Both the position numbers and the translations under genes were made by a program. The notes under the pieces were generated by a model. It saw only the letters and a program-made list of their open reading frames with translations. It was not told where the DNA came from and searched no databases. This document shows, one piece after another, positions 1 to 46,425 of a stretch of DNA of 64,000 nt (position 1 is the first letter of the stretch; each line of letters opens with the position of its first letter). The stretch comes from Cyanophyceae cyanobacterium (GTDB taxonomy: Bacteria > Cyanobacteriota > Cyanobacteriia > Cyanobacteriales > JBHJGN01): NCBI GenBank assembly GCA_050331735.1, contig JBHJGN010000011.1:1-64000 (forward strand). The letters run 5' to 3'.

Positions 1-139
1 CTGAGACAGTTTTCTCCCAAGACCGCTAAAAAAGTTGATTTGCTCATCAAAATAGCGATGTATCTCATAAATCCTCAGCATTTGCGTAACTGGTTTACCC
101 ACTGCTGTTATTGTCCCTCATAAACCTGCAAAGCGCTGT

Positions 140-615
140 AATGCTCGGAGTTTTGGTCGGTGAAGCAAATAGCTCTGAGCGCTCAGGAGCAGTGGTTCTT
201 CATGAAGCTAAAGAAAAGCTGTCCCGCTTGCAACTGGCTCGTAGATCAAGGCTACTGCGGTTAAAACTTTCAACACGCTGCTCAACAGGTCTGCGGTGAC
301 AGCGTTCGCGTCGAGGTGATCAGGCGCACCTCCACAGAGTTTGAGGTTTTACGGAGTGACCAGTTTTTGGCCGGAGGTTTCCTCCGGCCAAAAACTGGTC
401 ACCTCACGTTGAATTGTCGAGGGGCTGCGGGCGGGAACTACTTCCGCCCTTTAAAAGCCCGTCGAACGCAGTTGCGGCTGGCTCAATCGCTACCGTCGTT
501 TGAGTAAGGACTATGAACTATACGCTCACAGCAGCGAAGCGATGATTTATGGAGCGTTTATTCGCTTGATGATTCGCCGCCTCGCCGCTTAAGATTTACG
601 TTAGAAATCAGCTCT
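140..615 (+). mobile_element. Degraded IS5-family (IS1031-like) transposase, 3' part and right end
   Basis: Reading through frameshifts and two small inserts gives ...VDQGY...VEVIRRTSTEFEVLP-R*IVERSCGWLNRYRRLSKDYELYAHSSEAMIYGAFIRLMIRRLAA*, a typical IS5 C-terminus. Confidence 0.8.
356..402. repeat. Perfect hairpin (22-bp arms, TTT loop), small dispersed repeat-like insert
   Basis: GTGACCAGTTTTTGGCCGGAGG-TTT-CCTCCGGCCAAAAACTGGTCAC interrupts the IS5 reading frame. Confidence 0.85.
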
Positions 616-824
616 CAATGTAACTGGTGACCACTATCAATAACCAGTGCCGGTAGCTGTTACCGTTCTCAAAAACAGCAACTTAACTTTTCTATAGCTT
701 GATGATTCTCTTCCCGTTCATTACTTAATAATTTCCCTAAGTTTTCTCCCTGTTGCTGAGGAAGAATAACTGATGAGATAGAAGCAACAAACAGAAAACG
801 CCATTCGTAACAGGAAAAAAGCTC

Positions 825-1895
825 GTGATTTATAGCGCTACCAATCTATTCAATACTTATCTAAGAACTAAACCAAAGAATATTTTCCCGTCTGCAAAAA
901 AGCAATCTCAAACCTATTTCAGTCAGGATGCAACTCTCCCTCTCAAGATTGTCAGGACGGGAATGTATGTTCCGCCTGGAGTAGAAACCGCAGCAGAAGT
1001 GGCAACTCGCATCGGACGTTCTGAAGAGTGGGTTATCTCTCATGCGGGAGTTAAATATCGCCATGTTGCTAAAGAACCAATGGAAGTCATGGCAGCCAAA
1101 GCAGCCAAGCAGGCTTTAGGAGATGTCCCACCAGATTTAATTATCAATGCCTCTCTCACTCCAAGACAGCTAATTCCCGATAGTTCGGTATTTATTCAGC
1201 GAGAACTCGGTTTAACGGGGATTCCTTCATTCTCTATTCATGCAACCTGTTTATCTTTTCTGGTGGCATTGCGTACATCGGCTAGCTTACTCTCATCGGG
1301 GGCGTATCGTCGTATTCTGATTATTTCATCTGAAGTTGGAAGTATCTGTCGAAACTTCAACGAACCAGAAAGTGCAGCCCTAATTGGGGACGGCGCAGCA
1401 GCAGCCGTAGTAGAAGCTCCCCCAGAAGGCGAAAGTAGCAAACTGCTGGGGTGGAAAATGCTTACTTTTCCCGAAGGAGCAGAATTGACGGAAATTCGAG
1501 GCGGGGGAGTAGAGAGACATCCGGATAATGCCTTGACTCGCCCAGAAGATAACTTGTTCAACATGGATGGACCAGGAATTTATAAGCTAGCGATGCGTAA
1601 GTTAATCGTCACTTTGGAGCAGCTATTTGGGGAAGTAGGAATCAAAAAAGAAGAGATCGATTTAGTCATTCCTCATCAAGCTTCTGGTCGCGGTTTGAAA
1701 TTAGTGCCTCGTTTGGGTTTTCCAGAAGACCGCATCGTTAATATTGTTGGCGACTACGGTAACTGTATTGCCGCTTCGATCCCGATGGCAATGGCTCATG
1801 CTAACGCTACAGGAAGATTACACAAAGGTGATCGCGTTTTATTAACGGGAACTGGTGCGGGTCTTTCCATCGCAGGAGCTATAATCCAATGGTAA
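825..1895 (+). CDS. Stand-alone 3-oxoacyl-ACP synthase III (FabH-like ketosynthase)
   Basis: Cys-His-Asn triad in HATCLSF, IPHQAS and YGNCIAAS; GDGAAA motif; GTG start with AGGA upstream. Confidence 0.9.
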   Translation: MIYSATNLFNTYLRTKPKNIFPSAKKQSQTYFSQDATLPLKIVRTGMYVPPGVETAAEVATRIGRSEEWVISHAGVKYRHVAKEPMEVMAAKAAKQALGDVPPDLIINASLTPRQLIPDSSVFIQRELGLTGIPSFSIHATCLSFLVALRTSASLLSSGAYRRILIISSEVGSICRNFNEPESAALIGDGAAAAVVEAPPEGESSKLLGWKMLTFPEGAELTEIRGGGVERHPDNALTRPEDNLFNMDGPGIYKLAMRKLIVTLEQLFGEVGIKKEEIDLVIPHQASGRGLKLVPRLGFPEDRIVNIVGDYGNCIAASIPMAMAHANATGRLHKGDRVLLTGTGAGLSIAGAIIQW

Positions 1896-3007
1896 AAAGT
1901 AATTTGACTTTAAGCGATCGCCTTTTAGGAGCTTATCAGATTGTCTGTGAAACTTTTGGCATCTGGCGATCGCCTCTGTTTACTCTATTTTTCTACAGCT
2001 CGCTTCGCCTCATTGTATCTTTCGGACAGTATCTCGATCGCCTTTTCTATCCTCAACTGAGAACAAAAGCAATTACCAAACCGATTATCTTAATGGGAAA
2101 TCCCCGTAGCGGTACGACTTTTTTGCAACGCTTTCTAGTCGAGCATAATATCGGATCGGGATTGGAATTGTGGGAAATGGTTTTTCCTTCCTTAACTTTA
2201 CAGAAGTTGTTGCAACCATTTATTCCCCTGCTAGAAAAAATCAGTCCCGTGCGCCATCATGCTTCTGTGGCTCATGCTACTAGCTTGACTTCTATTGAAA
2301 CCGATGATGCTGCTGTATTTCTGCACTATTTAGATGGATTTTTCTTGTACGGTTACTTATTTGCTTTTGCTACAGAAGATTTGAGCGAGTTATTTATTAA
2401 CCAGCAGAGTAAGAATGCGGAACGAGATTTTAACTGGTTGAGTAATATTTGGCAGCGCAATCTCGTGAAAAAAAGGGGGAATAGGGTTGTGGCGAAACTT
2501 TTTTCTTTGGGAATCTATTTACCACAATTTCTAACCGCTCTTCCCGACGCACGTATTCTCTATTTGGTTCGCGACCCTGTGGAGTCAATACCTTCGGCGA
2601 TGAATCTAGTTACAGATGTCTTAGACAAAACATTTGGTTTTTGGTCGTTGCCAGAAGATGTCAAACAGCGTTATTTAGAACGTCTTTATTGGGCTTTGGT
2701 GAAATTGTTCGAGCGGTTTCATCGCGACTATACCACTGGTGCAATCGACCACGAAAGAGTCAAAGTTGTCTCTTATTCACGTCTAATGAGTGATTTTGAC
2801 AATTTAATGGCGGAGATTCTGGAATTTACCGAAATAGAACCAGACAGAAAACTACAAGTAGCAATTGCACATCAGGCAGAAATTCAATGTAACTATCGCA
2901 GCAAACATAAATACGACTTAGAACGTTTTGGCTTAAATAGCGATCACATTTACCGAGATTGTGCTTTTGTTTACGAAACATTCTTACAGCAAACAACAGT
3001 TATTTAG
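1889..3007 (+). CDS. PAPS-dependent sulfotransferase (Stf3-like)
   Basis: 5'-PSB motif GNPRSGTT; 3'-PB motif LVRDP..S; start overlaps the ketosynthase stop. Confidence 0.88.
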   Translation: MVKSNLTLSDRLLGAYQIVCETFGIWRSPLFTLFFYSSLRLIVSFGQYLDRLFYPQLRTKAITKPIILMGNPRSGTTFLQRFLVEHNIGSGLELWEMVFPSLTLQKLLQPFIPLLEKISPVRHHASVAHATSLTSIETDDAAVFLHYLDGFFLYGYLFAFATEDLSELFINQQSKNAERDFNWLSNIWQRNLVKKRGNRVVAKLFSLGIYLPQFLTALPDARILYLVRDPVESIPSAMNLVTDVLDKTFGFWSLPEDVKQRYLERLYWALVKLFERFHRDYTTGAIDHERVKVVSYSRLMSDFDNLMAEILEFTEIEPDRKLQVAIAHQAEIQCNYRSKHKYDLERFGLNSDHIYRDCAFVYETFLQQTTVI

Positions 3008-3014
3008 AGAGAAG

Positions 3015-4388
3015 ATGATGGTAACTACAACTTCAATTAAAGCTAAGGCTCTACCAAAAAAAAGTTTATGGCAAAATACCCGTTTATTATTGAAGTTTAG
3101 ACGCCAACCTTTAGAAACTTTGCGGAAAATTTGCGATTACCACGGCGATTTGGTTAATTTTGAAATTGGCAATCGTAGCATAGCTATCGTGCGCGATCCA
3201 GAATATATTGAACAAATTCTCGTTAGAAAACGTAAAAACTTTACTAAAAATACACCTGGATATAAAAATCTCAAGCTGTTGCTCGGAGAAGGATTGCTGA
3301 CTAGCGAAGGGGATTTTTGGGTAAAACAAAGACGGATGGCTCAACCTAGTTTTCATCGCGAAACAATTGCAGGTTTTGCCGAGATTATGACTCAAGCAAC
3401 AAAGGAATTTGTATTTGATTGGAAATTATCAGCTAAACAAGAACGAGTCATTGATGTCTCAAATGAGATGCAAAAGTTGACTCTAAAAATTATTGGATTG
3501 TGTTTGCTCAGTGTCGATCTGAGCGACGAAGCGCAAACAATTTCTCAGGTACTACCAATCGTAACTAAATATATTACTAATAGAGTTCAACCGATTCAAC
3601 TGGTTCCCGATTGGCTACCAAATGGAGAAAAACGCCAATTTCAAAAGGCAGTCGCAGAATGCAATCGTGTAGTCTATGAAATCATTAATCAAAGAAAACA
3701 ACAACAGGATAAGGGTCGAGATTTACTAGGAATGTTCCTCGAAATGTACGATGAGGAGACAGGGGAGAGAATGAGCGAGGTTCAAGTTAGGGACGAAGTC
3801 ATGACTATGTTTTTAGCTGGTCATGAAACTACTGCTTCTAGTTTGAGTTGGACTTTTTATCTAATAGCACGACATCCCCAGATAGAAGCCGATCTTAGAG
3901 CAGAATTACGCACAGTATTAGGCGATCGTTTGCCTTCTTTATCCGATTTGTCTCAGCTACAGCTTTTAGACAGAGTAATTAAAGAATCAATGCGACTGTA
4001 TCCACCACTTCCCTTGATAGCACGCAAAGTGGAAACTGATGATGTCGTCGGCGATTATCATTTTCCCGCTCGAATGCAGATAATAGTTAGTTCTTATGTC
4101 ACCCATCGACATCCTAAATATTGGGACAATCCAGATCGCTTCGATCCAGATCGCTTTTTATCCGTTCTTTCTGCATCATTACCTCGATCTACTTATATTC
4201 CTTTCAGCGATGGCGCACATAGATGCATCGGCGACCAATTTGCTCTGATGGAAATGAAGTTAGTTTTGGCAACGATTTTACAGCACTTCAAGTTGTCTCT
4301 TAGTTTAGGACAAAAAGTCGCGATGGATCCTAATATTACTCTGCGTCCTAAAGATGGTTTACCGATGTTGCTACAACCTCTCAATTAG
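3015..4388 (+). CDS. Cytochrome P450
   Basis: I-helix AGHETT, ExxR (ESMR), FDPDRF, heme ligand FSDGAHRCIG. Confidence 0.96.
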   Translation: MMVTTTSIKAKALPKKSLWQNTRLLLKFRRQPLETLRKICDYHGDLVNFEIGNRSIAIVRDPEYIEQILVRKRKNFTKNTPGYKNLKLLLGEGLLTSEGDFWVKQRRMAQPSFHRETIAGFAEIMTQATKEFVFDWKLSAKQERVIDVSNEMQKLTLKIIGLCLLSVDLSDEAQTISQVLPIVTKYITNRVQPIQLVPDWLPNGEKRQFQKAVAECNRVVYEIINQRKQQQDKGRDLLGMFLEMYDEETGERMSEVQVRDEVMTMFLAGHETTASSLSWTFYLIARHPQIEADLRAELRTVLGDRLPSLSDLSQLQLLDRVIKESMRLYPPLPLIARKVETDDVVGDYHFPARMQIIVSSYVTHRHPKYWDNPDRFDPDRFLSVLSASLPRSTYIPFSDGAHRCIGDQFALMEMKLVLATILQHFKLSLSLGQKVAMDPNITLRPKDGLPMLLQPLN

Positions 4389-4419
4389 TCGATTGCATAC
4401 TCATTCAAGGTAACAAAAC

Positions 4420-5529
4420 ATGAATCGTCACAATCCCCTCGGTTATATACATCCTCTTGCTGGTAGCTCTATCTTTCACTTGCTTAATTTATACTTCAAA
4501 AGTGGTGGAGTTGATCGCCTTTATTTAGCCAAGATACTTCTCATCTCAGTTATGAGTTTGTTGACTACTCCGCTAATAATCTTAGAAAAGATAAGATTTG
4601 AACGAAGAATTACTCGAACTAAGATCGAAGACTCGCCTATTTTTATTGTCGGTCATTGGCGTAGCGGTACGACCTATTTGCATAATTTATTGAATTGCGA
4701 TTCTCAGTTTGGCTATCTCAATACACTACAATCATTTAGAGCTTCGGAAATTTATTTGATTGCACGAAAAGCGATCGAGCGAGTAGCAAAAAAACAATTT
4801 CCGATGGAAAGACCAATGGATCGGGTGAAAATTACAGCAGATTCTCCTCAAGAAGAAGAGTTTGCTTTAGCTAACTCTTCTACCTATTCTTTTTATCACG
4901 GTTTTTACTTTCCTCAGCAAATGTGGCAATTATTCAATCGCTTTGTTTTACTAGATCGCCAATCAGAACCAATTAAAGAAAAATGGAAAAAACTTTATTG
5001 GCGGCAGCTACAAAAAATGACTCTTAGTTCGGGAAACAAAAGATTAATTATTAAAAACCCTGTTAACACAGCTAGAATCAAACTCTTATTAGAGCTATTT
5101 CCCAAAGCGAAGTTTATTCACATTTATCGCGATCCCCATATTGTTTATGTTTCTACCAAAAGGATGTATCAAAAAATGATTGATACTTGGGGATTACAAG
5201 ATATTTCTGAAGTAGCGATTTCTGAAAATATTTTATATTTCTATCGAGCAATGATGCAGGAGTATTTAAGAGCTAAAACGGCAATACCAACCCAGAGCTT
5301 AATCGAAATTAAATACGAACATTTTATTGGTTGCGAACTTGAATACTTAGCGTATATCTATCAACAATTTGATCTATCTAATTGGGAGGAGGTGCAACAA
5401 CAATTCCAGCTTTATCTTCAATCACAGAGTGAATATCGACGGAATAATTATCAATTAGATAATAAGACTGTTTCTCTAATTAAAAGTCATTGGCAGTTTG
5501 CTTTACAAGAATGGCAATACAGTATTTGA
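4420..5529 (+). CDS. PAPS-dependent sulfotransferase (Stf3-like)
   Basis: GHWRSGTT, RPMD, PQEEE, IKNP, HIYRDP motifs. Confidence 0.9.
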   Translation: MNRHNPLGYIHPLAGSSIFHLLNLYFKSGGVDRLYLAKILLISVMSLLTTPLIILEKIRFERRITRTKIEDSPIFIVGHWRSGTTYLHNLLNCDSQFGYLNTLQSFRASEIYLIARKAIERVAKKQFPMERPMDRVKITADSPQEEEFALANSSTYSFYHGFYFPQQMWQLFNRFVLLDRQSEPIKEKWKKLYWRQLQKMTLSSGNKRLIIKNPVNTARIKLLLELFPKAKFIHIYRDPHIVYVSTKRMYQKMIDTWGLQDISEVAISENILYFYRAMMQEYLRAKTAIPTQSLIEIKYEHFIGCELEYLAYIYQQFDLSNWEEVQQQFQLYLQSQSEYRRNNYQLDNKTVSLIKSHWQFALQEWQYSI

Positions 5530-5578
5530 CAGTACGGGCGAATATCCATTCCCCATAATCGATTTATTTAGTGTAATT

Positions 5579-6091
5579 ATGAAAAGTCTCAAACTACCCC
5601 GACCCGTTATCTGGAGAAATACAGCTTTAGTAGTCTTTAATCTATTTTTAATCGGTAATGCCATCTGGTTGCACCGTTACATCCTTCGGAACACCGCAAC
5701 TATTAACAAGACTACAGCTTCGGAACAAACTATTTCTGAAATTAATAAAGTCATCCCTAGTCAAATCAATGGGGTAGCTGTGCTAGGAACAATCGAGCCT
5801 GAAGGAGAAGTAATTCGTGTTGCACCCCCACCATCATTTGAAGGCTCTTTACTAAAGCAATTATTAGTAAAAGTAGAGGAGCGAGTTACAGCAGGACAAA
5901 CCATTGCCATTCTCGATAATTGCGATCACCTCCAAGCAGCCTTAGATCGAGCAAAAGCTCAGGTAAAAACAGCCCAGGCTCGGTTAGAGCAGGTCAAAGC
6001 TGGTATATCTCATTTTCAAGCTAGAACCCAAAAATATAAAAACCCTAATAATTACTGCATCTATCAAATGATAACAACAATAACGATATAG
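5579..6091 (+). pseudogene. Truncated DevB/HlyD-family ABC exporter membrane-fusion protein
   Basis: N-terminal TM, VAVLGTIEPEGEVI, biotinyl-like LLVKVEERVTAGQTIAILD and a coiled coil ending LEQVKAG; homology stops near 6004 and no DevC/DevA genes follow. Confidence 0.75.
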
Positions 6092-6272
6092 GTTTTTCCA
6101 GTCAGAGATTATTTCGATCCCGCTTGACGGGACTCCGCCGTAAAACAACGGAGCCTGTCTTGAGGCGCGTTCCTTGGGGAATGAAGCATCGCCAGGGTCG
6201 CCTCGCTGCTCTGACCGACTGTTGAAACTCCCTAATAGCGATGCGATCGCTTATTAACAATATTCATAAATT

Positions 6273-7544
6273 ATGAGTAGTCTAATGTCACAAACAAATT
6301 TACCTACTAGAAAAGAAAAATCTGCATCTTCGGATTATACGAATGTTTATGGTAGTCAAAATCTCAAGCAGGTTGAGAAAATTTATCAGACTAACAAAAA
6401 TTCTAACTACACCGAACGAATAGAAGAACTTCAAAAACAATATAATTACGACGATAATTGTGAATATAACTGGCTCGATCCAGAATTTTCCCTACTTTAT
6501 GGCAGTCGTCTCTACGAATCTGCTTCAGAGACGCAAAAAAAAGCTCTCAATCATCTTTACTGGATTTGCTTTTATAACTACAGTATTGGTGGCGAAATTG
6601 CCACAATGATGTTTAATCAATTGACCTGTGGGGCTTTCTACCATTTAGGTGGCTATGAAACCCTCTGTCACGAACTCGATCTCGAAACTGCTCAGGAAAG
6701 AGTACACGTAGAAGCATTTCGCCACATCGGTCAATTAACCGAGCGTGCTTTATTAGGCAAACAAATCTTTAATCGTCCAATTCCTGACTACCTAGATGCA
6801 GCCTTAGTTCATCCGCAAAAACAATTCAAACTAAACTTTGGTCGTAAATTAATCGGTATGTTCGTGGGTTCGGGAATCAGTCGTTCTCCTTTTCTAGCAA
6901 GTCAATACTATGTGCTTAGAGGATTGCGTAATAATCAACTGAAAGTAAAAGAGTACAGACATTCTCTCTACAGTCGCGAACTAGCCAAGCAGAAAGAGTT
7001 TGTAGCTGCTCCCACTTTAGTCTCTCACTATCACTGTTTAGATGAAGCTTTCCACACTTCGACTTCTAAATTAGTCAGCCATGAAATGTACAAAGATTTT
7101 GCTAAACCAACTGCTTTAGAGCTTTTGTCGGTCAATCTTTTGGTGAGAAACTTGCAATTTACCATGAGTACTCTTTCTGGTGCAGTACCAGGTATTTTTT
7201 CTGACGATGCTGCTTATATGCCTTTAGTCTACGAAATGTTGCGATCGCCTTTATTCGCTCTCTCAGCCGAAGAAGCATTGCAAATGGTGGAGGATAGCTT
7301 TTGTCGAGAACACGATGGGTTTCACGTAGCTGCTAAGTATCATCAACGCGCCCTCAAACAAAATTTGGAGTATGTCGAAGGAATAGAACATTTGTCAGGT
7401 GTCAATCGCGAACTCAAAGTGATGGCTTCAGCTTCTGTCTCCAAGAGCCTTCAGAATAACATCGAAACTTTCCACAACTTTGTCAATCGTTACTCAAAAA
7501 TAACTGTAAGTAAACCATGCTGCATTTTCAGGGCATATTTTTAG
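6273..7544 (+). CDS. CylC-type dimetal-carboxylate halogenase (AurF-like ferritin fold)
   Basis: PEFSLLYG..LY, LNHLYW, EIAT, LDLETAQERVH (ExxH) and HYHCLDEAFH (HxxDExxH), hallmark motifs of cyanobacterial CylC homologs. Confidence 0.85.
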   Translation: MSSLMSQTNLPTRKEKSASSDYTNVYGSQNLKQVEKIYQTNKNSNYTERIEELQKQYNYDDNCEYNWLDPEFSLLYGSRLYESASETQKKALNHLYWICFYNYSIGGEIATMMFNQLTCGAFYHLGGYETLCHELDLETAQERVHVEAFRHIGQLTERALLGKQIFNRPIPDYLDAALVHPQKQFKLNFGRKLIGMFVGSGISRSPFLASQYYVLRGLRNNQLKVKEYRHSLYSRELAKQKEFVAAPTLVSHYHCLDEAFHTSTSKLVSHEMYKDFAKPTALELLSVNLLVRNLQFTMSTLSGAVPGIFSDDAAYMPLVYEMLRSPLFALSAEEALQMVEDSFCREHDGFHVAAKYHQRALKQNLEYVEGIEHLSGVNRELKVMASASVSKSLQNNIETFHNFVNRYSKITVSKPCCIFRAYF

Positions 7545-8392
7545 CGATCTCTCGCGGTACAATCGTCGGCTGTTTCTTTTTATGTTTGTATCTTCTCTTT
7601 TTTTCTGCTTATACTCGGCTGAATATCCACGAGCGATTTGGTGTTTTTAAAACAGCAGAACCAACCATTCATTACCAGACTGCTCTAAAAAACTGGAAAA
7701 TTCCGTTGATGTGGGGAATTGGGATTACTCTTAGTAGCTACTTTTTAGGACTCAAGCTAGGCGATCAACCCAAACTCGTATTTACAATTCCAGAACAATA
7801 TGTATTTCTGCACTCCCCCAATTTCTTAACCGATATTATCTATGCCATTGTTGGTTTTTATGCAATCGATCTAACGGATTACTGGGCGCATCGTCTCAAC
7901 CATCGCTATCGAATACTGTACGACCGATTTCCTTTTGCCCATTTTGTCCATCATAACTGCGTCTACCTCAACCCTTTAGTAGTTGCTAGCTCGCCTCCAG
8001 TTCATTTGGCTGCTTTAAGCGGAATGCTGATGTATGTTCTTTATCTCAGCCAGGGCTTAGTTACCTCGGTTACTTTACTTCACGTAGTTAAAGTTGCCAG
8101 TAACTACCTTTCCCACCAAGGCTGCGATCCTCTACCCTGGTTGAGTCGTTTGAATCATCGAGTAGGAGGCTGGATTCCTTGGATACCACTACATCATCAG
8201 TATCACCATTTGCCTTTTGTGCAAACTGGCAATTATGGTAATGTCACTTGCTTGTGGGATTATGTTTTCAATACTGTGGTTCCCGAATGCATTTATCATC
8301 TTGAAACAGGTAAGCCCACGGCTGAAGTGGCAGCTAAAGTCCGAGATCGGAAAAAAATTACTGAGTTTCTCACAGACAAAACTTGTTGGTAG
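7517..8392 (+). CDS. Sterol desaturase / fatty acid hydroxylase family membrane enzyme
   Basis: His boxes HRLNH, HFVHH, HHQYHH; GNYG...LWDYVFNT; several TM segments. Confidence 0.85.
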   Translation: MLHFQGIFLAISRGTIVGCFFLCLYLLFFSAYTRLNIHERFGVFKTAEPTIHYQTALKNWKIPLMWGIGITLSSYFLGLKLGDQPKLVFTIPEQYVFLHSPNFLTDIIYAIVGFYAIDLTDYWAHRLNHRYRILYDRFPFAHFVHHNCVYLNPLVVASSPPVHLAALSGMLMYVLYLSQGLVTSVTLLHVVKVASNYLSHQGCDPLPWLSRLNHRVGGWIPWIPLHHQYHHLPFVQTGNYGNVTCLWDYVFNTVVPECIYHLETGKPTAEVAAKVRDRKKITEFLTDKTCW

Positions 8393-8424
8393 TGGGGTTT
8401 GAGTAGCAACTGATACTGCTGACG

Positions 8425-9255
8425 GGCATTGTCAACTTAACGGTACTGGCGCAACCTCCCTATCTATGCGAAGCTGAGGGAATGAGCATTAGTTATAAAC
8501 GACATCGTTTTCCTGCCGAGATCATCTCCTATTGCGTCTGGTTGTATTTCACCTTCCCCCTCAGTTTCAGAGATATCGAGAAAATGATGCTCTATTGAGG
8601 CATCGAGATTACTTATGAAGCGATCCGCAAGTGGTGCCTCAAATTTGCCCAAGTCTATGCCAACCAAATTCGCCGCCGTCGTCCTAAGCCTTCTGATAAG
8701 TGGCATCTCGATGAAGTCGTCATCAAGATTAAAGGCAAGAAGTTCTATCTCTGGCGAGCTGTGGACAAGGATGGTCAGGTGATTGATATCCTGATGCAGA
8801 GTAGACGGAACGAAGCCGCCGCTGACAAATTTTTTCGGAAACTGCTTAAGCCTCAAGAGACTGCTCCTAGGGTGGTTGTTAGCGATAAACTCAAGAGCTA
8901 CGGTGCTGCTCTGAAGAAGCTATTTCCAAGAATAGACCATAGTCAGCATAAGGGATTGAATAACCGAGCGGAGAACTCTCGTCGACCGACTAGGGTTCGA
9001 GAAAGGCGGATGGGACGGTTTAAATCCCCAGGTCAAGCTCAACGCTTCCTCTCCGCTTTTGAACCGATAAGAGGACATTTTTATCCCCATCAGCATCAAC
9101 TCAATGCCACAGAATACCGAGACATTATGTGTCAGCGATTTGAGAGCTGGCTGGAAATAACTTGTCTAAAGGCCATGGCTTAGATAATTCTCTTGCTTCT
9201 TTCGTTAGAAAAACAGTGCCACTTTTCGGAAATGCTCAGTTAAGTTGACAATGTC
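8425..9255 (+). mobile_element. IS6-family insertion sequence
   Basis: Terminal IRs GGCATTGTCAACTTAAC (8425-8441) and GTTAAGTTGACAATGTC (9239-9255), 16/17 match; IS6 transposase inside. Confidence 0.92.
8482..9183 (+). pseudogene. IS6 transposase with in-frame TGA at 8596-8598
   Basis: MSISYKRHRFPAEII...LY*GIEITYEAIRKW...WHLDEV...YLWRAVD...NNRAENSRRP in a single frame. Confidence 0.88.
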
Positions 9256-9430
9256 AAGATAGATGGTGTCTCTTGCTACCTTGATCCCTTGAGGAAAACC
9301 GACAGACTGTTTGCCGTGCTTGGACTTAAACCGAGGGTACTTAGCTCTTTTCTCAAAGAAGTCGATAAAAGCACGAGATAGGTTGAGCGTTGTCTGTTGC
9401 AAGCTCTGGGAGTAGACATCAGTAGCTCAC
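9256..9430 (-). pseudogene. tnpB: Internal fragment of IS200/IS605 TnpB, cut by IS6
   Basis: DVYSQSLQQTTLNLSRAFIDFFEKRAKYPRFKSKHGKQS is a typical TnpB N-terminal segment. Confidence 0.8.
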
Positions 9431-9443
9431 CACTTAAGCTGCT

Positions 9444-11297
9444 TTAGAGCTTGGTTCCGCAGTCAGGACAGAACTTGTTTGTGCTGGAATTTTCGGCTCC
9501 GCAGTTGCTACAGGTTTGCTCGGTCAACTGGTCAACTAGCTCCGGTATCCCGATCATTTGAGCGTTGTTTTTCCCGGGAGCGACCATTGGGTAGCAGTTT
9601 TCGTCTTTAACCACGTGGGCATCGAGCAATACCGGACCGTCGTGAGCGAGCACTTCGGCGATCACCTCGGATAGCTGGCTGCGATCGCGCAGCGTCATGC
9701 CCTTCACGCCGTAAGCTTGCGCCAGCAGCTCAAAGTCGGGCATCCCAATTTGCATGTTAGAAGAGGAATAGCGCTCGCCAAAGAAAGCTTGCTGCCACTG
9801 CCGCACCATGCCCTGCCAGCCGTTGTTAATAATTACCGTCTTGACGTTGATGCCAAACTGAGCTAGGGTCGCCAGTTCCTGAGAGTTCATCTGAAAACTG
9901 GCATCGCCGCTGATGCAGATGACATCTTCAGTGGGCAGGGCGACTTTCACTCCCATGGCCGCCGGTAAACCAAATCCCATAGTTCCGAGTCCAGCGCTCG
10001 AAATCCAGCGACGGGGGCCATTTTTGAGGAACTGAGCCGCCCACATCTGATGCTGGCCAACATCGGTGGTGTAGTACGCATAGGGAGCCTGTCGTCCTAA
10101 CTCCACAATCACTTCCTGGGGAGCAATGCTGTGTTCGTAACTCGGCACCGCTAGGGGGTAATCTTTGCGCCAGCGCTGCACCCGCTGGAGCCACTCCTGA
10201 GTAAGCTCTCCTGTTGTCAATTTGCGCTCCTGCGCCCGTCGCAGGATTTGCTTCAAAACGTGCTGCACATCGCCCACAATTGGAACGTGAGGACGACGGT
10301 TTTTGCCGACTTCCGCCGGATCGATATCGATGTGAATTACCTTGGCGCGGGCGGCAAACTCGTCTAGCTTTCCGGTCACGCGATCATCAAATCTGGCCCC
10401 AACAGCAATCAGCAGATCGCACTCACTAACGGCAAAGTTAGCATAGGCGGTTCCGTGCATTCCAAGCATCCCGACCGACAGGGGGTGATGCTCGTCGAAC
10501 GCCCCAATGCCCATCAAGGTTGTCGTTACCGGAATTTGAAACCGTTCTGCCAGTTCGCGGATTTGAGCATGGGCATTGGCCGAAATTGCGCCACCGCCGA
10601 CATACAACAGCGGACGCGCACTCTCCTCAATTAAATCAAGGGCGGCATCAATTTGCCGAGGATTGCCCTTAACGGTGGGGCGATATCCGGCTAGCTTAAT
10701 TTTTCCGGGTTCCACCGGAACGTAGTCAAATTCTTCGATGCCAACGTCTTTCGGAACGTCGATTAACACCGGACCCGGGCGACCCGTGCGCGCAATATAG
10801 AATGCTTCAGCCACCGTTTGCGCCATTTCGACCGCATGACGTACCACGTAGGAATTTTTGACAATTGGCAGCGTAATCCCAAAGATATCGGTTTCTTGAA
10901 AAGCGTCGCTGCCAATAGCGTTACGAGGAACCTGACCCGTCACCACTACCATCGGGATCGAGTCCATATGGGCCGTGGCAATTCCGGTGACTAGGTTAGT
11001 TGCACCCGGACCAGAGGTAGCAAAACACACTCCTACTTTGCCTGTCGCCCGCGCATATCCATCCGCAGCGTGGGAGGCTCCCTGTTCGTGTCTGACTAAA
11101 ATATGCTCAATTTCTCCTCTCGCTTCAGCCTGGTAGAGAGCATCGTAAATGGGCAGAATAGCACCACCAGGATAGCCAAACACATGCTCAACGCCATGAC
11201 GGACTAGGCTATCAATTAAGGCAAAAGCACCTGTACGGCGAACAGGCGATGGTTGTGATGCAGATGATTGTTCAGGAACGCTTCTTGTAGAAACCAC
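9444..11297 (-). CDS. ilvB: Acetolactate synthase large subunit with C-terminal zinc-ribbon
   Basis: [39 protein letters not shown] motif GDASF...NN. Confidence 0.96.
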
Positions 11298-12454: not shown

Positions 12455-13261
12455 ATGAAAACTATCAAAAGACTTCAAAAGGCCGCGCTTTTTGCTTTAC
12501 CTCTCTGGGTAGCTTTGGCTGTATCTTTTGCTTCCCCTATTTTGGTAACGTCTTCTACACCAGCCCAGGCAGAAGGAGATTTGCCTCACTGGTCTTATGG
12601 TGGAGCGGCAAATCCGACCCAATGGGGACGGCTAGGACACGACTTTGCTTTGTGTGAAGTCGGCAGAGATCAATCTCCTATAAATATAGATGCTGATAAT
12701 GCCATCGTTGGTGCCAAAGCGGAAATTGACTTTAATTATGGATCAGTCCCACTTGTTGTAGTTAACAACGGTCATACTATTCAGGTTAACTATGCTGAAG
12801 GAAGTACGGTCAGGATTAGTGGCGAGGAGTATGAACTAGTCCAGTTTCATTTTCATACGCCTAGCGAGCATACTACCTCTGGACAAGCCTATGCTATGGA
12901 ACTGCATCTCGTACACCGGAACGCAGTTGGAGAGTTAGCGGTGCTCGGGATTATGATGACAGAGGGGATAGCCCATTCTGCCATCGCCACCATCTGGGAG
13001 CATGTTCCTGGAGAGAAAACTAAGGCCGTGGCGGAATCAACTATTAATGCTGCTGATTTGTTGCCCAGTAGCGTCAATTATTTCAGCTATGGTGGTTCGC
13101 TAACTACCCCCCCCTGTAGCGAAAATGTTCGCTGGTATGTTTTCGCCGAACCCATTCAAGTGTCTCAAGAGCAAATTGATAGATTTGAAAATCTCTATCC
13201 GGTCAATGCTCGTCCCACTCAGCCGATAAACGGACGCCAGATTGAATTTCATCAGGAATAA
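12455..13261 (+). CDS. ecaA: Secreted alpha-carbonic anhydrase
   Basis: Signal peptide; HWSY, QSPINI, NNGHT, Zn ligands QFHFH and ELHLVH, GSLTTPPCSE, NARP. Confidence 0.93.
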   Translation: MKTIKRLQKAALFALPLWVALAVSFASPILVTSSTPAQAEGDLPHWSYGGAANPTQWGRLGHDFALCEVGRDQSPINIDADNAIVGAKAEIDFNYGSVPLVVVNNGHTIQVNYAEGSTVRISGEEYELVQFHFHTPSEHTTSGQAYAMELHLVHRNAVGELAVLGIMMTEGIAHSAIATIWEHVPGEKTKAVAESTINAADLLPSSVNYFSYGGSLTTPPCSENVRWYVFAEPIQVSQEQIDRFENLYPVNARPTQPINGRQIEFHQE

Positions 13262-39972: not shown

Positions 39973-40410
39973 TTCTTGAACGGTTCCAGGAAACGGCTGA
40001 TTGCTTAAGTGTGATTCAGACTTGTCGCTTTCAGGGTCGTTCTGTCGGGCATTTTTTCGCCTCCGCTTTGATAGCTACTGTTGGAGTTGGCGATCGCCCT
40101 TCTTTAATTCCTGATTTTGATACCTGAATTCTTACGAGTAGGCTTACCTGGCATCGCTGAATGGGTAATGTTTTCGATCTGATTGTCAACGAAGAACATG
40201 GATCGTAGACGACATCAATCCTGGTTAATATTTCCTAATCAGCAATGCGGTCAGTCTTTATGCTATTCCAAGTCTTTGAAGATGCTCTATTCGTCTTCTC
40301 CTTCACTATCTCAAGTTTCACTCGGTTGCTCTGAGCACCTGAAATATTACTATTCAGCAACGCCCTCAGTTCTACCCCAATTACTTGCTCCTTAGTTTAA
40401 CAACATAAAT

Positions 40411-41307
40411 TTAGATAGGTTCAAATATTTCTATTTTTCCGAGAGTAGATTGATTGTTGCTTTTATCGTATTCGTTACGATTTACGTGCAAAAAGCTTCC
40501 GTCAGAACGCCAATATATACTGCTAACAGAAATAACTTGACCTTGGGAGTCTTTGAGGATTAAGAATCCGTCAGCATATCCAGCATTGACGTATTCCCAA
40601 GTTCCAGAGAGTTGGGTTCTATCTATAAAAGAATCGTGAAGAGAACTACCATAGACAAGGTTCGCTTTTTTTCTTGCATATTGAAATGTTCCATCAGATT
40701 TTAATTCGATTCTCTCTTGAGTAAGAGTCACCGATTCACTAAGGGAGGCAAACCCGCTATCAGTTCTTTTTGTACCGAAGATATTCCAAGTTCCCAATAA
40801 TTGGCTTGCAGATAAGTTATTGTTTTGACTAACTCTCTGCCATTTATCTTCTTCATTAGCTTGATAATGAAATTCGTCGTCAGATATAAATTCTATAGCG
40901 CTCTCTTTTTCCTCACCATCTTCTGATTTTTTATATAGAGTACCGTCAGAAAACTGCCAAGTTCCTGTACCAAGAATAAACCAGTGTACATCTCTTATTG
41001 TAGCAATACTAAAGTAAGTGCCATCTGGCTGATAAAAAACGATCAAATCAACTTTTTCGCCGTCAAAAATTGTTGAAGAAAACCAACCGCCAACTAATGA
41101 CTTAGAAGATGACTTTTTGTCATTAGTTTTATAGCTAAAATTTTTAACTTTGCTTATTTCTTTAAATCTATTATTTTTATTTGCTTTAGCAAGAAGAAGC
41201 GATTTTTCTAAATTTGTGCCTGTGACCGTTTCTACCTCGTTTAGGAAAATCAAACCGCTACATATCAAAAAAATAAGCAGGGACGGTTTTATCATGAGCT
41301 TATTCAT
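40411..41307 (-). CDS. Hypothetical exported protein with two lipocalin-like beta repeats
   Basis: Signal-like N-terminus; LVGGW...GTWQ and LLGTW...GTWE duplicated pattern; AT-rich. Confidence 0.6.
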   Translation of the reverse strand: MNKLMIKPSLLIFLICSGLIFLNEVETVTGTNLEKSLLLAKANKNNRFKEISKVKNFSYKTNDKKSSSKSLVGGWFSSTIFDGEKVDLIVFYQPDGTYFSIATIRDVHWFILGTGTWQFSDGTLYKKSEDGEEKESAIEFISDDEFHYQANEEDKWQRVSQNNNLSASQLLGTWNIFGTKRTDSGFASLSESVTLTQERIELKSDGTFQYARKKANLVYGSSLHDSFIDRTQLSGTWEYVNAGYADGFLILKDSQGQVISVSSIYWRSDGSFLHVNRNEYDKSNNQSTLGKIEIFEPI

Positions 41308-41357
41308 AATGTTATCGCTGCCGTGATTGTGGTCGTCAATTTATTAAATCACCGACA

Positions 41358-41903
41358 AATCGCCCTTACCCAGAGGAGGTCAAACAACTGTGCCTGAAGA
41401 TGTATCATAACGGCATGGGTTTAAGAGGGATTGCACGAGTGACAGGAATTCATCATACAACAGCGATGCATCACCGCAGAAGCCGGGTTAAAGTTATCCG
41501 ATGCTTCCGAAGCAGACGAAATCCCTGAAATAGCCGAGATAGACGTTAGCGAAGCTCCTCTGAAAGAGGCACTACCAACCCCGGTCCGGGGTGCATTCCG
41601 CACCTACTGGCAGCCAGGAATCAACTTATGGACAGTCGGCGACCGCAGTAGTGCTAGTTTTCAGAGGCTTTGGTTCACCATCAAATGCTGGCATAGCTTT
41701 TGGTATGTCACTGATGGTGGAAAATTTACCCTAAATTCATTGCTCCTGAAGACTGCCGACCCAGCCTGAAGGCCTTCAGGCTGGAAAGCGGCAGTGCATT
41801 CCGCACCATCTGATTAGCAAAACCTACATGACCAGAGTTGAGGGCGAAAATACTAGATTGCGACACTACTTAGCTCATTTACATCATCAGACTTTATGCT
41901 ATT
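41358..41903 (+). mobile_element. Degraded IS1-family transposase remnant
   Basis: EEVKQLCLKMYHNGMGLRGIARVTGIHHTT...IPEIAEID...GDRS...WYVTDG...SKTYMTRVEGENTRLRHYLA..H..TLCYS across frameshifts and inserts. Confidence 0.85.
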
Positions 41904-42076
41904 CGGGGTTCGGGTAGCAGAGGAACCGATAACAACGCTAAGCCGTCCAGTTTTCTGGACAAAATAGCTCGATGCTTTACACCATCAAGCTATAGCGGTG
42001 GCAAGCCCATCTTTTCTCTCAAAATAGCTCGTTGTTCGTGCTGACTAAGAAACGCAGCGCTGCGATCGCCACCTGA

Positions 42077-42466
42077 CAAGCATTTGCTCAACACCTAAAA
42101 CCCCATAGACGAATATTTATCGATTTAGCATTGCCTGTGGAATCTTTCAAAACTGAGAACACTGTTCAACAGCGAGAGCCTGTTAAATGCCTAGATGGTG
42201 CAGTAATTCTGATGCAAACATCATCATACATTGACTGGATAGAACAAATCGAACATACTTTTATTCGCTACGAGAAATGGAAAGACGGCAAGCTAATTGA
42301 TACAGAACTACAGCATCTTCCCCTACATTGGTTCGGACGAGAGGAATTTATCATGCGTTTGCGAGAGAATGGTTACACTGATATAACGCTCTGTGCTAAC
42401 TACACAAACGGTTCAAAACCAGATTCCCATCACGATCAATTTTGTTTTTCAGCCACCCTTGCCTGA
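42077..42466 (+). pseudogene. C-terminal fragment of a class I SAM methyltransferase
   Basis: AFAQHLKP..RIFIDL...RYEKWKDGKLIDTELQ...LHWF..EEF...L...G; no N-terminal SAM motif. Confidence 0.55.
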
Positions 42467-42497
42467 AACTCCTCACGAATAGAATTGGAGTAGACGC

Positions 42498-42803
42498 TTG
42501 AACACAATACTGATGCAAAAATTGGAAGTGCTATCGATAGTCAGGTTCCACCAAGAGCAACTACAAGGCCTAGGCGTTAAATCTCTAACATTGTTCGGGT
42601 CTGTTGCCCGTAATCAGGCAGGACCGAACAGCGATGTTGATTTCCTCGTTGAGTTTTCTCGACCTATAGGTCTATTCGGTCTCTTTCAAGTTCAGCACTA
42701 TCTAGAGTCTGTTCTTGGCTGTTCCGTCGATCTTGGCACTATTAAAGCACTAAAAACTCATCTACGAGAGCCTGTTTTAAAGGATATTGTTCGTGTCTTC
42801 TAG
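42498..42803 (+). CDS. mntA: MNT antitoxin (minimal nucleotidyltransferase)
   Basis: LFGSVAR...SDVD (GSx10DxD), VDL. Confidence 0.9.
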   Translation: MNTILMQKLEVLSIVRFHQEQLQGLGVKSLTLFGSVARNQAGPNSDVDFLVEFSRPIGLFGLFQVQHYLESVLGCSVDLGTIKALKTHLREPVLKDIVRVF

Positions 42804-43152
42804 AAATTGGTTATTGCGAGTCAAGGATATTCTAGATGCCATTAATAGTATTCAAGAATGTACGAAGGATAAAACCTTTACAGAATTTGCAGCCAACATG
42901 CTTCTTGTTAAAGCAGTTCTTTATGACTTTATCGTTATTGGGGAAGCAGCCGTTAGTATCCCAGCAGAAGTACAGGCAAAGACACCTGAAATACCTTGGC
43001 GGCTTATGGGTGATATGCGAAACGTAGTGGCTCATGAATACTTACGCGTTGAGCCAGAAATCATTTGGGATACGGTCAACAATAATCTTCCTAGCCTAAT
43101 CGAGCCATTACAAAAGCTCTTGGAAGCTAATGAGGCGGAGGATAGCTGCTGA
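42793..43152 (+). CDS. hepT: HEPN (DUF86) RNase toxin
   Basis: IGEAA, IPW..M..MRNVVAHEY (Rx4H); overlaps mntA. Confidence 0.9.
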   Translation: MSSRNWLLRVKDILDAINSIQECTKDKTFTEFAANMLLVKAVLYDFIVIGEAAVSIPAEVQAKTPEIPWRLMGDMRNVVAHEYLRVEPEIIWDTVNNNLPSLIEPLQKLLEANEAEDSC

Positions 43153-43213
43153 ACGCAACAAAAATGCCTTCCTCCTGGAAGAGAAAGGCATTAACAAAAA
43201 AAGTATATCGGTC

Positions 43214-45562: not shown

Positions 45563-45675
45563 AAAATATAAGGAGAAGAGGATTCGGTGTGGTCTATCCT
45601 TAATGTATCTTTACGTGCAGCATCTCCCCAGTGGGAAAAGCCGTAATCTATCAGGAGGTTTCCCGCCAATGAAGA

Positions 45676-45766
45676 TGTCCCTTTGGGACGGGGAAGCGCG
45701 CTAGAGGCGCGGGGGAAATGTCCCTTTGGGACGGGGAAAGGGGAAGGGGCAAAGGGGAAAGGAAAG
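45676..45766 (+). repeat. GGGGAAA-heptamer/hairpin composite repeat (partial)
   Basis: Two TGTCCCTTTGGGACGGGGAA units plus GGGGAAA runs. Confidence 0.75.
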
Positions 45767-45900
45767 CAAAAAGTATCTGAGTCAGCTCCTACACAGAGAG
45801 TCTGTCAGATTAGCTTACTCTCAATCAGGAGGTACTCTGCTGGAGAAACGCTTAACTTTTGAGGAGTAAGGCTAAGAGCTAATCGCTAACAGCTAAACCC

Positions 45901-46311
45901 TCATTTAGGTAAAATGTCTGTTGAGGACTGCAACAATTCAACGAGATTGCCGTCTGGATCGCGAAATAGAGTGGTGACGATTCCCCACTCGGTGAATTTC
46001 CAAGGCTCGTTGAGAAATTCTACCCCTTTAGACATTAAGTACTGACGCGCTCGATCGACATCTTGGACTTGAAAACTTAGAGCAATGCCATCGTCTTGCT
46101 GACCAAAGACAACGGCAGTTTGTTCGCCAAAGTACTCTTTGACCTTGTGGCGCTGAATGAGAGTGAGGATAGTATCTCCAGTTTCTAATTCGGCATATTG
46201 GTTTTCTGGGTCTTCGTACTTGACGGTTAATCCGAGTACGTCCCGGTAGAACTGCAAACAAGTGGGATAATCTTCTACTAAAAGTCGGGTGTAGGCAAAC
46301 GTAAACTGCAT
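45901..46311 (-). CDS. VOC/glyoxalase family protein
   Basis: FYRDVLGL, FQVQDVD, WG..TLFRDPDGNLVEL. Confidence 0.9.
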   Translation of the reverse strand: MQFTFAYTRLLVEDYPTCLQFYRDVLGLTVKYEDPENQYAELETGDTILTLIQRHKVKEYFGEQTAVVFGQQDDGIALSFQVQDVDRARQYLMSKGVEFLNEPWKFTEWGIVTTLFRDPDGNLVELLQSSTDILPK

Positions 46312-46425
46312 CGGTTCCTCCTGCTGATATCCGTTGATCACAATCTTCCTATGGAAGCACTAAATGAACAAAAAGTGTCGTGCTGCCAACTCACCTAATG
46401 GGGACAAGGAAGCTGGGCGGCTGCT

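Follow-up and report, generated by a model that had tools for sequence, protein, structure and literature searches.

Gene content of the island

The window, the whole stretch of 64 kb analysed here, covers positions 1-64000 of contig C11. The host organism is uncultured and its genome is known from a metagenome only. Between 825 and 8392, the window carries an island of seven ORFs, all on the plus strand: six intact enzyme genes and the remnant of another gene (Table 1). The original prediction named a ketosynthase III (KSIII), two sulfotransferases (ST1 and ST2), a P450 and a CylC halogenase, and the family models and intact motifs bore out these identities. It had counted seven genes; six are intact and the remaining one is a truncated devB fragment. 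Its "desaturase" is a membrane enzyme of the FA_hydroxylase superfamily (FAH) and could equally be a hydroxylase.

Table 1. Features of the island and its boundaries
Feature	Position	Strand	Length	Evidence
Dispersed repeat at contig end, island left boundary	1..141	no strand		blastn, contig depth
KSIII, MxnB/CorB-like	825..1895	+	356 aa	Pfam ACP_syn_III_C 9e-27, ACP_syn_III 7e-16
ST1	1889..3007	+	372 aa	Sulfotransfer_3 1.4e-17 (65 bits vs cut-off 27), Sulfotransfer_1 2.4e-08
P450, CYP102/BM3-like	3015..4388 (longest ORF from GTG 2961)	+		Pfam p450 9.6e-101
ST2	4420..5529	+	369 aa	Sulfotransfer_3 3.2e-33 (116 bits)
DevB-family membrane-fusion (exporter) gene remnant	5498..6091	+	197 aa	TIGR02971 2.8e-21
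CylC-like dimetal-carboxylate enzyme, putative aliphatic halogenase	6273..7544	+		PF28091 (CylC-like)
FAH, membrane FA_hydroxylase/sterol-desaturase family	7517..8392	+		PF04116 1.9e-17
IS240-type DDE transposase fragment, right boundary	8761..9183	+		DDE_Tnp_IS240 9.8e-22, profile positions 25-135 of 139

KSIII and ST1 overlap by 7 nt and the CylC-like gene and FAH by 28 nt. The gaps are 7 nt between ST1 and P450 (given a P450 start at ATG 3015) and 31 nt between P450 and ST2. The cluster GC content is 0.35-0.43, compared with 0.495 for the genome. HIP1 sites (GCGATCGC) lie at exactly 1914, 1966, 6243 and 7241, and both cluster halves are represented. Junctions, low GC and HIP1 positions were all as first described. 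The predicted cyanobacterial origin also held, with 48 HIP1 sites in the window against 1.16 +/- 0.97 expected from shuffles; judged by these sites, the host is a HIP1-rich cyanobacterium. As had been stated, no PKS or NRPS was found among the ORFs of the window, the largest of which has 872 aa. Neither a carrier protein nor an acyl-AMP ligase or PKS is encoded by the cluster ORFs, and the locus shows no acyl reductase that would give a C1 alcohol. An APS kinase is encoded on contig C46, which implies that the host can make PAPS.

The best PDB matches of KSIII were MxnB (4v2p, 3.4e-66) and CorB (4yuc, 4.6e-66), ahead of FabH (1.7e-45). Its Cys-His-Asn triad aligns with C121/H264/N292 of MxnB, the Glu base is absent, and it shares with MxnB and CorB a stretch where the alignment to FabH has a gap. 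By likeness, KSIII looks like a chain-joining type. A ketosynthase for the predicted "chain building" is present, but plain elongation is unlikely as its role, since it is nearer to MxnB/CorB than to FabH. It may instead act by decarboxylation as FabH does, on an unusual primer. Homologs are 79-82% identical over the full 356 aa. In the database, the gene is called from ATG 963.

Both sulfotransferases carry a G-x-x-R-S-G-T-T loop and an R-D-P...S motif. ST2 has one strongly hydrophobic N-terminal segment by hydropathy (residues 34-58) and matches solved structures weakly (2zq5, 2z6v). ST1 has 1547 homologs, the named ones from Myxococcota, KSB1 and Bacteroidota, and a match in only one of 400 other cyanobacterial genomes (28% identity). 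The type of pair to which KSIII and ST1 belong is widespread outside cyanobacteria. The P450 has the ESMR (ExxR) and FSDGAHRCIG (heme-Cys) motifs, and fatty-acid hydroxylases of the BM3 type are among its PDB matches (about 1e-52 to 1e-60).

The CylC-like protein has an AlphaFold model with pLDDT 85.6. Its Atlas structural neighbour is a cluster named "ColE" (TM 0.84), and the fold resembles CmlI (VIA Z 17.4) and AurF (16.4). E108, E142xxH145, E227 and E258xxH261 were invariant in alignments of 20 and 16 sequences. Homology points to a putative halogenase, and we know of no residue signature that tells CylC-type halogenases from oxygenases or desaturases. A second CylC homolog of the same genome, 40% identical, lies on contig C49 in a canonical FAAL-ACP-CylC-PKS setting. 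FAH has three His boxes (HRLNH, HFVHH and HHQYHH). The dN/dS values against related locus L001 (0.13 for the CylC-like gene; 0.11 for FAH) indicate that both genes are under purifying selection.

The fifth ORF was rejected as a functional gene: the match to the DevB model is confined to its residues 93-182 and to model positions 1-90 of 327, and the next gene follows after only 181 nt. Full-length DevB paralogs are present elsewhere in the genome.

Boundaries of the island

The cluster begins 825 nt from the contig end, so additional upstream genes are possible. The repeat at the contig end recurs on 11 other contigs as blastn matches of 136-148 nt with 97.97-100% identity; on four of these contigs the match falls at the first base. 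Summed contig depth is 348 in the bin 1-534 versus about 49 within the cluster; the depth of the island itself (49.4) is close to that of its flank (47.9-52.8). On the right side, the assembly graph branches at 8424 with loose ends. The locus is rearranged, as the devB stump, the IS fragments and the contig edge show, and it may be incomplete.

Related loci

A sulfotransferase stands in the gene row of this CylC subclade at five of eight loci (the window, L001, L002, L012 and L014). The three loci lacking it are L013, L015 and L016, with L013 and L016 on contigs below 3.8 kb. The CylC proteins of the closest relatives are 82% identical to ours. FAH directly follows CylC in the window, L001 and L012, with identities of 84% (L001) and 71% (L012). 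ST2 is 38-47% identical to the sulfotransferases adjoining CylC homologs in L001, L002 and L012. ST1 had no BLAST match to the sulfotransferases of other loci at E<=1e-5, and a laxer comparison gave weak matches (17.7-33.8% identity, E 5e-6 to 3e-4).

Both L001 and L002 also encode an Fe/2OG enzyme whose best PDB matches are SyrB2/CytC3 (E 5e-27 and 4e-23). In these relatives, a sulfotransferase would therefore stand beside aliphatic halogenases of two types. Because sulfotransferases stand beside CylC at five of eight loci and the closest relatives add a SyrB2-like halogenase, a cluster family joining predicted aliphatic halogenation with sulfation is real on this evidence. Both relatives further contain a KS-like, SDR, sulfotransferase and alpha/beta-hydrolase set. 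L012 adds to the core an AMP ligase and a reductase for ACP thioesters, a route that would lead to a primary alcohol, a possible sulfation site. The window's gene order KS-like, ST, P450, CylC recurs in L014, an unrelated contig of high GC. Between the window, L001 and L014, the KSIII-like genes show 23% identity or no BLAST match; they are not orthologs, and the scaffold may therefore vary from locus to locus.

By this distribution, the island is a mosaic: a KSIII-ST1 pair, of a kind often met outside cyanobacteria, and the P450 appear to have been joined to an ST2-CylC-FAH core common to low-GC cyanobacteria. It was probably gained horizontally. The tight or overlapping junctions speak for one gene set.

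Proposed pathway and alternative explanations

We think it about an even chance that the genes form one operon-like island making a halogenated, sulfated, fatty-acid-derived lipid, that is, a chlorosulfolipid in the broad sense. If true, this would be a chlorinated sulfated lipid whose genetics was never described before. From the family assignments, we infer the following course. Lacking its own carrier protein, acyl-AMP ligase and PKS, the island would draw its substrates from primary fatty-acid metabolism. KSIII would build the carbon skeleton by Claisen condensation of thioester intermediates. The BM3-like P450, possibly together with FAH, would insert hydroxyls into the alkyl chain, and ST1 and ST2 would move sulfate from PAPS onto two of them. 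The CylC-like diiron enzyme would chlorinate an unactivated sp3 carbon. A DevBCA-type exporter would formerly have been part of the locus, of which the stump is left.

The chloride, the sulfate or both might be only leaving groups, and the final lipid would then lack one or both. An alkene would result if sulfate were eliminated, and a ring or a C-C or C-O bond if chloride were displaced. The four-enzyme set of L001 and L002 resembles Ole/OLS logic. Sulfate serves as a leaving group in the mechanism of CurM and OLS. According to the available text of PMC8472315, a sulfotransferase domain precedes a hydrolase in olefin synthases, and that of PMC8406957 describes cryptic halogenation by CylC/CylK and BrtJ/BrtB. 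Among the ORFs of the window, however, there is neither a thioesterase or hydrolase nor an alkylating partner like CylK or BrtB, and two distinct sulfotransferases exceed the need of one elimination. Such cryptic activation seems unlikely. It is more doubtful still that the CylC-like protein and FAH are a hydroxylase or desaturase pair making a sulfated (poly)hydroxy lipid devoid of chlorine. The N-oxygenases AurF and CmlI share the fold of the CylC-like protein, as do acyl-ACP desaturases, a proven product exists for only few family members, and no homolog from beyond the subclade exceeds 49% identity. Nevertheless, the protein matches the CylC-like family model, its nearest structural cluster is named ColE, and its closest relatives adjoin a second enzyme with a halogenase signature. 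The CylC-homolog clusters listed in the available text of PMC8406957 (columbamides, bartolosides, microginin, puwainaphycins, chlorosphaerolactylates) all yield halogenated metabolites.

The KSIII-ST1-P450 and ST2-CylC-FAH modules might also be unrelated, united by mobile elements and not one pathway, or non-functional. The devB stump and the 181-nt gap separate the halves, IS fragments and repeats lie on both flanks with the graph branch nearby, and GC is about 0.40 against 0.495. Many relatives of KSIII and ST1 occur in other phyla, and ST1 is at most weakly similar to the sulfotransferases of other loci. Yet none of the six enzyme ORFs is disrupted and their catalytic residues are conserved, genes within each half overlap or are at most 31 nt apart, the four HIP1 sites spread over both halves, and L014 repeats the order of the first three genes and CylC. 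We regard an accidental or decaying mosaic as the least probable of these explanations.

Comparison with known systems

MxnB and CorB, the best solved relatives of KSIII (about 39% identity, counted on the printed alignment), form alpha-pyrones by joining two carrier-protein-bound beta-keto chains from PKS lines (PMC5724707). KSIII shares with them a hydrophobic residue (Ile; Val94 in MxnB) at the position of the catalytic Glu105 of PpyS, but the island encodes neither PKS nor carrier protein. The Fe/2OG proteins of L001 and L002, which are not encoded in the window, align their H-Q-A with that of SyrB2 (H-x-A signature) and keep the second His. Unlike SyrB2/CytC3, they have an extra N-terminal stretch of ~90 residues including a hydrophobic segment, and their tightly packed cluster has no carrier-protein gene.

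In Mycobacterium tuberculosis, Cyp128 hydroxylates a lipid that Stf3 then sulfates. The island likewise has a neighbouring P450 and sulfotransferase pair that would act on a lipid, and several ST1 homologs carry the automatic JGI label "omega-hydroxy-beta-dihydromenaquinone-9 sulfotransferase". No menaquinone genes lie close to the island, however, and solved mycobacterial-type sulfotransferases match only weakly.

With CylC, BrtJ, ColD/ColE and NocN/NocO, the island enzyme shares the family model PF28091 (a placement that comes from the model), a ferritin-like diiron fold nearest AurF/CmlI with the E/ExxH/E/ExxH set, and a predicted fatty-chain context. It differs in having no adjoining FAAL, ACP or PKS, and in being partnered by sulfotransferases, a P450 and FAH.

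The gene set had been called unrecognised, but the architecture is already on record as an orphan category: the available text of Eusebio et al. 2021 (PMC8406957) lists one "cytochrome P450/sulfotransferase" CylC cluster (n = 1) in Stanieria sp. By that partial description, it resembles ours in combining a CylC homolog, a P450 and a sulfotransferase with no adjoining carrier protein, whereas the nearest relatives that we retrieved carry the SyrB2-like enzyme in place of the P450. No cluster matching the description was found in 61 genomes of the L002 genome's family or in other samples, and our literature search found no paper giving a P450/sulfotransferase CylC cluster a product.

The chlorosulfolipid reading is supported in part, by the co-occurrence of sulfotransferase and CylC in independent loci, the SyrB2-type halogenase of the relatives and the APS kinase; nothing singles out a danicalipin-type product. 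Chlorosulfolipid producers known so far are eukaryotic algae, as far as the available text of PMC13413282 goes, and the literature search found no biosynthetic gene for danicalipin A, malhamensilipin or mytilipins. Compared with those chrysophyte and mussel lipids, the window encodes a single halogenase and lacks a reductase for the 1-alcohol; the ketosynthase is chain-joining-like, and there is no evidence on chain length. Like danicalipin A, malhamensilipin and the mytilipins, the predicted product would have sulfate esters and chlorinated unactivated carbons on a long alkyl chain, and the two sulfotransferases would fit a disulfate.

Gene content of the island

The window covers the initial 64 kb of a contig of 299,118 nt (C11). 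This contig belongs to a genome of 5.57 Mb with a completeness of 99.98%; the host organism is represented by metagenome-derived sequence only. Seven open reading frames lie at 825-8392. The original prediction of seven co-oriented genes was right in the number of reading frames and their common orientation (all on the plus strand), but the fifth had only a partial match to DevB. Of its 197-aa product, only residues 93-182 matched TIGR02971, the model for DevB membrane-fusion proteins, and they covered the first 90 of its 327 positions. A full-length DevB was rejected: the score, 76 bits, lies below the cut-off of 129.

Features of the island and its surroundings in the window
Feature	Position	Strand	Assignment
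Repeat at contig end	1-141		
KSIII (ketosynthase)	825-1895	+	Pfam/NCBIfam
ST1 (sulfotransferase)	1889-3007	+	Pfam/NCBIfam
Cytochrome P450	2961 or 3015 to 4388	+	Pfam/NCBIfam
ST2 (sulfotransferase)	4420-5529	+	Pfam/NCBIfam
197-aa ORF, partial DevB match	5498-6091	+	Pfam/NCBIfam
CylC-like protein, 423 aa	6273-7544	+	PF28091; no match in the Pfam copy used
FAH (FA_hydroxylase-family membrane protein)	7517-8392	+	Pfam/NCBIfam
Mobile-element ORF	8464-8856	-	No Pfam match
IS240-type DDE fragment	8761-9183	+	
Mobile-element ORF	9205-9402	-	No Pfam match
Acetolactate-synthase-type thiamine-diphosphate enzyme, 617 aa	9444-11297	-	
Eukaryotic-type (alpha) carbonic anhydrase	12455-13261	+	Pfam, 2.8e-48

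The tight or overlapping junctions claimed earlier were confirmed, with overlaps of 7 nt between KSIII and ST1 and of 28 nt between the CylC-like gene and FAH. The gap of 7 nt between ST1 and the P450 gene also holds, provided that the P450 starts at the ATG at 3015. The cluster is indeed AT-rich (GC 0.35-0.43, compared with 0.495 genome-wide), and its four HIP1 sites were recovered at exactly the predicted positions, within a window total of 48 where about 1.2 would be expected by chance. Catalytic motifs were intact in all six enzymes, as had been stated. Neither promoters (17 vs 18.1 in shuffled sequences) nor terminators (6 vs 8.2) were above background in our scans, and Rfam gave no match at E ≤ 0.1 in positions 1-9500.

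The CylC-like protein

By its sequence, the 423-aa protein is a member of the CylC-like family. It had no Pfam match in the profile search because the PF28091 model was absent from the Pfam copy used. PF28091, named 'CylC-like' in the protein atlas, was carried by the protein itself and by 120 of 120 homologs among the matches listed. The closest atlas cluster by structure was 'ColE' (TM 0.84).

We used 20 of the 31 best matches to build an AlphaFold model (pLDDT 85.6), and it aligned best with the diiron N-oxygenases CmlI (VIA-align Z 17.4, 275 residues aligned, rmsd 3.9) and AurF (Z 16.4, 299 residues, rmsd 4.4), which predicts a ferritin-like diiron fold. Foldseek found no PDB entry at E ≤ 0.001 for this model (best E about 0.01), and a PDB sequence search with the CylC-like and FAH proteins gave no match at E ≤ 1. 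E108, E142xxH145, E227 and E258xxH261 were invariant in two alignments: A1 with 20 sequences, and A2 with 16, one of them the paralog on contig C49. The residues E108, E142, H145, E227, E258 and H261 are putative metal ligands.

The paralog, 449 aa long and 40% identical to the window's protein, belongs to a second biosynthetic cluster of the same genome (C49, about 40,100-51,800). The gene order of that cluster is canonical: FAAL, ACP, CylC homolog, PKS (KS-AT-KR-ACP-reductase), GT4 glycosyltransferase and methyltransferase. Its product is probably a chlorinated, reductively released, glycosylated lipid.

The ketosynthase and the sulfation genes

KSIII has the KSIII fold in Pfam and, aligned to MxnB (numbering after PMC5724707), the Cys-His-Asn triad. 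Its best PDB matches were MxnB and CorB (E about 4e-66, 227 bits), compared with 2e-45 and 159 bits for the best FabH, and a stretch common to KSIII and MxnB/CorB is a gap in the FabH alignment. The genome's own FabH-like gene was only 27% identical to KSIII. Two other ketosynthase types were rejected. The catalytic residues of PpyS/NocG/OleA-type ketosynthases are listed in PMC9486936; these head-to-head enzymes have a catalytic Glu about 25 residues ahead of their active-site Cys, where KSIII has Ile. In the printed alignment this Ile stands opposite Val94 of MxnB, the position of Glu105 of PpyS. Therefore, KSIII is not of the PpyS/NocG type. The StlD/DarB dialkylresorcinol type scored 25 bits with NF005293, far below the cut-off of 450. 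KSIII could take doubly activated beta-keto thioesters as substrates, as MxnB does, or work in the manner of FabH with an unusual primer. The two carrier-protein-bound beta-keto substrates that MxnB and CorB receive from PKS lines have no counterpart here: the window contains no PKS, as originally noted, and we found no carrier protein in it either.

The P450 resembled BM3-type fatty-acid hydroxylases. ST1 and ST2 scored 65.1 and 116.3 bits with Sulfotransfer_3 (cut-off 27), and the 5′-phosphosulfate and 3′-phosphate loops, in their usual definition, were present in both and aligned to 2zq5. ST2 also has a single strongly hydrophobic N-terminal segment. No paralogs of ST1, ST2 or FAH were found in the genome, which encodes an APS kinase for PAPS supply.

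Related loci

Two scans, of species-representative genomes and of metagenome contigs, gave two and five confirmed loci, respectively. The CylC subclade above 50% identity comprised eight distinct loci, including the window; L006 and L001 are one locus.

Gene content of related loci, with percentage identities in brackets
Locus	Content
L001	KS-like, fatty-acid desaturase, SDR, sulfotransferase, PhyH-family enzyme, alpha/beta hydrolase, CylC (82% to the window's), FAH (84% to the window's), rubrerythrin-like
L002	Set of L001 as far as the PhyH enzyme; CylC gene cut by a transposase and frameshifted
L012	ACP-thioester reductase, sulfotransferase (47%), CylC (62%), FAH (71%), AMP ligase
L013	Contig too short to judge content
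L014 (high-GC contig)	KS-like, sulfotransferase, P450 (33%), CylC (53%), ferredoxin-domain protein
L015, L016	FAAL, dehydratase, CylC; without sulfotransferase

A sulfotransferase gene accompanied the CylC gene of this subclade in five of the eight loci, in four different architectures, and in three of these loci FAH was directly 3′ of CylC. FAH was not found in L002. The sulfotransferase of L001 was 41% identical to ST2, and the gene row there is tightly packed, with no small carrier-protein ORF.

The PhyH enzymes of L001 (7345-8598) and L002 (5254-6405) had SyrB2 (5e-27) and CytC3 (4e-23) as their best matches, and carry H-Q-A at the position of the H-x-A halogenase signature of SyrB2. Both have about 90 extra N-terminal residues including a hydrophobic segment, and no carrier-protein gene was found in the clusters around them. 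These Fe/2OG enzymes may be membrane-anchored aliphatic halogenases that work without a dedicated carrier. At 3233-9888 of L001, a KS-like enzyme together with an SDR, a sulfotransferase and an alpha/beta hydrolase recalls the logic of Ole and olefin synthases. By this analogy one might speculate that sulfation serves there as an activating step.

CylC homologs were present in seven of 201 genome representatives of the order (E ≤ 1e-80) and in 33 of 401 of the phylum (E ≤ 1e-60), the latter never above 42% identity apart from the window itself. One of two genomes in the family of genome G043 and one of 61 in the family of genome G533, to which the genome of L002 belongs, had a match. Throughout the order, phylum and family samples, only G043 (81%) and G533 (a broken copy) joined the subclade.

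Origin and boundaries

Repeats were found at both ends of the island. Positions 1-141 recur on 11 other contigs (136-148 nt, 97.97-100% identical), from the first base in four of them, and the summed depth of this repeat exceeds that of unique sequence roughly sevenfold. Probably, the assembly broke here at one end of a mobile element present in several copies. Downstream, overlapping mobile-element fragments extend over 8464-9402. The only run listed as containing the stretch was a DNA run, possibly the assembly's own source; no RNA run was listed. In independent unitigs of this DNA run, 112-8424 formed one piece and the graph branched at 8424; the depth of the island was 49.4, compared with 47.9-52.8 in the flank. 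The island thus lies between repeats. Its depth is that of the host genome, and it was probably acquired. Beyond the repeats, the acetolactate-synthase-type enzyme is an unusual fusion with a C-terminal zinc ribbon, and the carbonic anhydrase gene adjoins that of GroEL.

The DNA around the core relatives has 37-38% GC and contains HIP1 sites. ST1 and KSIII had 1547 and 3558 homologs, most of them 50-64% identical. The named ones among the best 120 of each list belonged to Myxococcota, KSB1 and Bacteroidota. Close relatives of KSIII (79-82% identical) and of ST1 (81-84%) included sequences on contigs of 3,856 and 14,380 nt. Among 400 other cyanobacterial genomes, ST1 had one match (28% identity), and tblastn against plasmids gave none.

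Besides the window's own contig, the two best-120 lists had five contigs of the same size in common, with matching sources (3856, 4941, 6670, 13917 and 166115 nt); that of 3856 nt carries a pair at 82-84% identity. Chance is not a reasonable explanation of the coincidences at 3856, 13917 and 166115 nt, while those at 4941 and 6670 nt might be chance. Because same-size contigs recur in both lists, adjacency being taken from size, these data suggest that KSIII and ST1 form a widespread ketosynthase-sulfotransferase pair from large uncharacterised families. Uncharacterised members of the two families number in the thousands beyond the cyanobacteria, which suggests a widespread and unexplored sulfated-lipid module.

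Possible product and competing explanations

The reading that we favour, at about even odds, is that the island encodes one pathway, fed by primary fatty-acid intermediates, to a chlorinated, sulfated, fatty-acid-derived lipid. Two different sulfotransferases and an APS kinase would provide the capacity, and the capacity only, for two sulfate esters. It is unlikely in our judgement that the chloride or the sulfate is cryptic. The CylC-like protein aligns best with N-oxygenases in structure and belongs to the CylC-like family in sequence, and that it is an oxygenase instead of a halogenase appears quite unlikely. An accidental or decaying mosaic is very unlikely. The CylC-like gene and FAH are under purifying selection (dN/dS 0.13 and 0.11, respectively, window vs L001).

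For the single pathway, the original prediction had a specific model, that of danicalipin-type chlorosulfolipids. This model is unsupported because the window has no reductase to the 1-alcohol, only one putative halogenase, and a ketosynthase nearer to chain-joining enzymes. No reductase for this step was present among the ORFs of the window's cluster; the related locus L012 has an ACP-reductase. As for candidate enzymes of a possible polychlorination, the window has one CylC-like gene, compared with CylC plus a SyrB2-like gene in relatives.

Among membrane lipids, chlorosulfolipids are unusual, and they are suspected of being shellfish toxins. To our knowledge, they have been known since the 1960s and only from algae, mussels and seawater. 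A 2021 review relays a suggestion that cyanobacteria might make them (PMC10077240), and a 2026 paper reports chlorosulfolipids in seawater with producers unknown (PMC13413282). Our full-text literature searches found no chlorosulfolipid gene cluster and no assigned product for a cluster of CylC with sulfotransferase. Tentatively, the island and its relatives with the core of sulfotransferase, CylC and FAH might represent the first loci behind chlorosulfolipid-type lipids, here bacterial chlorinated alkyl sulfates made in or at the membrane, though we consider this doubtful. If true, chlorosulfolipids, whose biosynthetic genes were not found in the literature searched, would have a bacterial origin open to testing.

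Comparison with known CylC systems

The acyl chain on which characterised CylC acts is tethered to ACP and comes from a FAAL and an ACP encoded next to it. The window's enzyme differs in having neither as a neighbouring source of acyl chains, and no PP-binding or AMP-binding ORF was found in 1-9300. A putative aliphatic halogenase of the CylC type with two sulfotransferases makes a concrete and compact six-gene construct for which a carrier protein is not needed. According to Eusebio et al. (2021; PMC8406957), a CylC-type enzyme without a tethered substrate is sought as a biocatalyst for C-H chlorination.

That paper distinguishes seven categories among 95 CylC clusters. One of them, 'cytochrome P450/sulfotransferase-containing (n = 1)', comes from Stanieria sp. 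and is described there as lacking both a carrier protein and a known product. We did not find a cluster of the Stanieria type in the sampled genome representatives of the order, the phylum and the families of G043 and G533. Compared by the text of that paper, the window, with no carrier protein found, likewise combines a CylC homolog with a P450 and a sulfotransferase.
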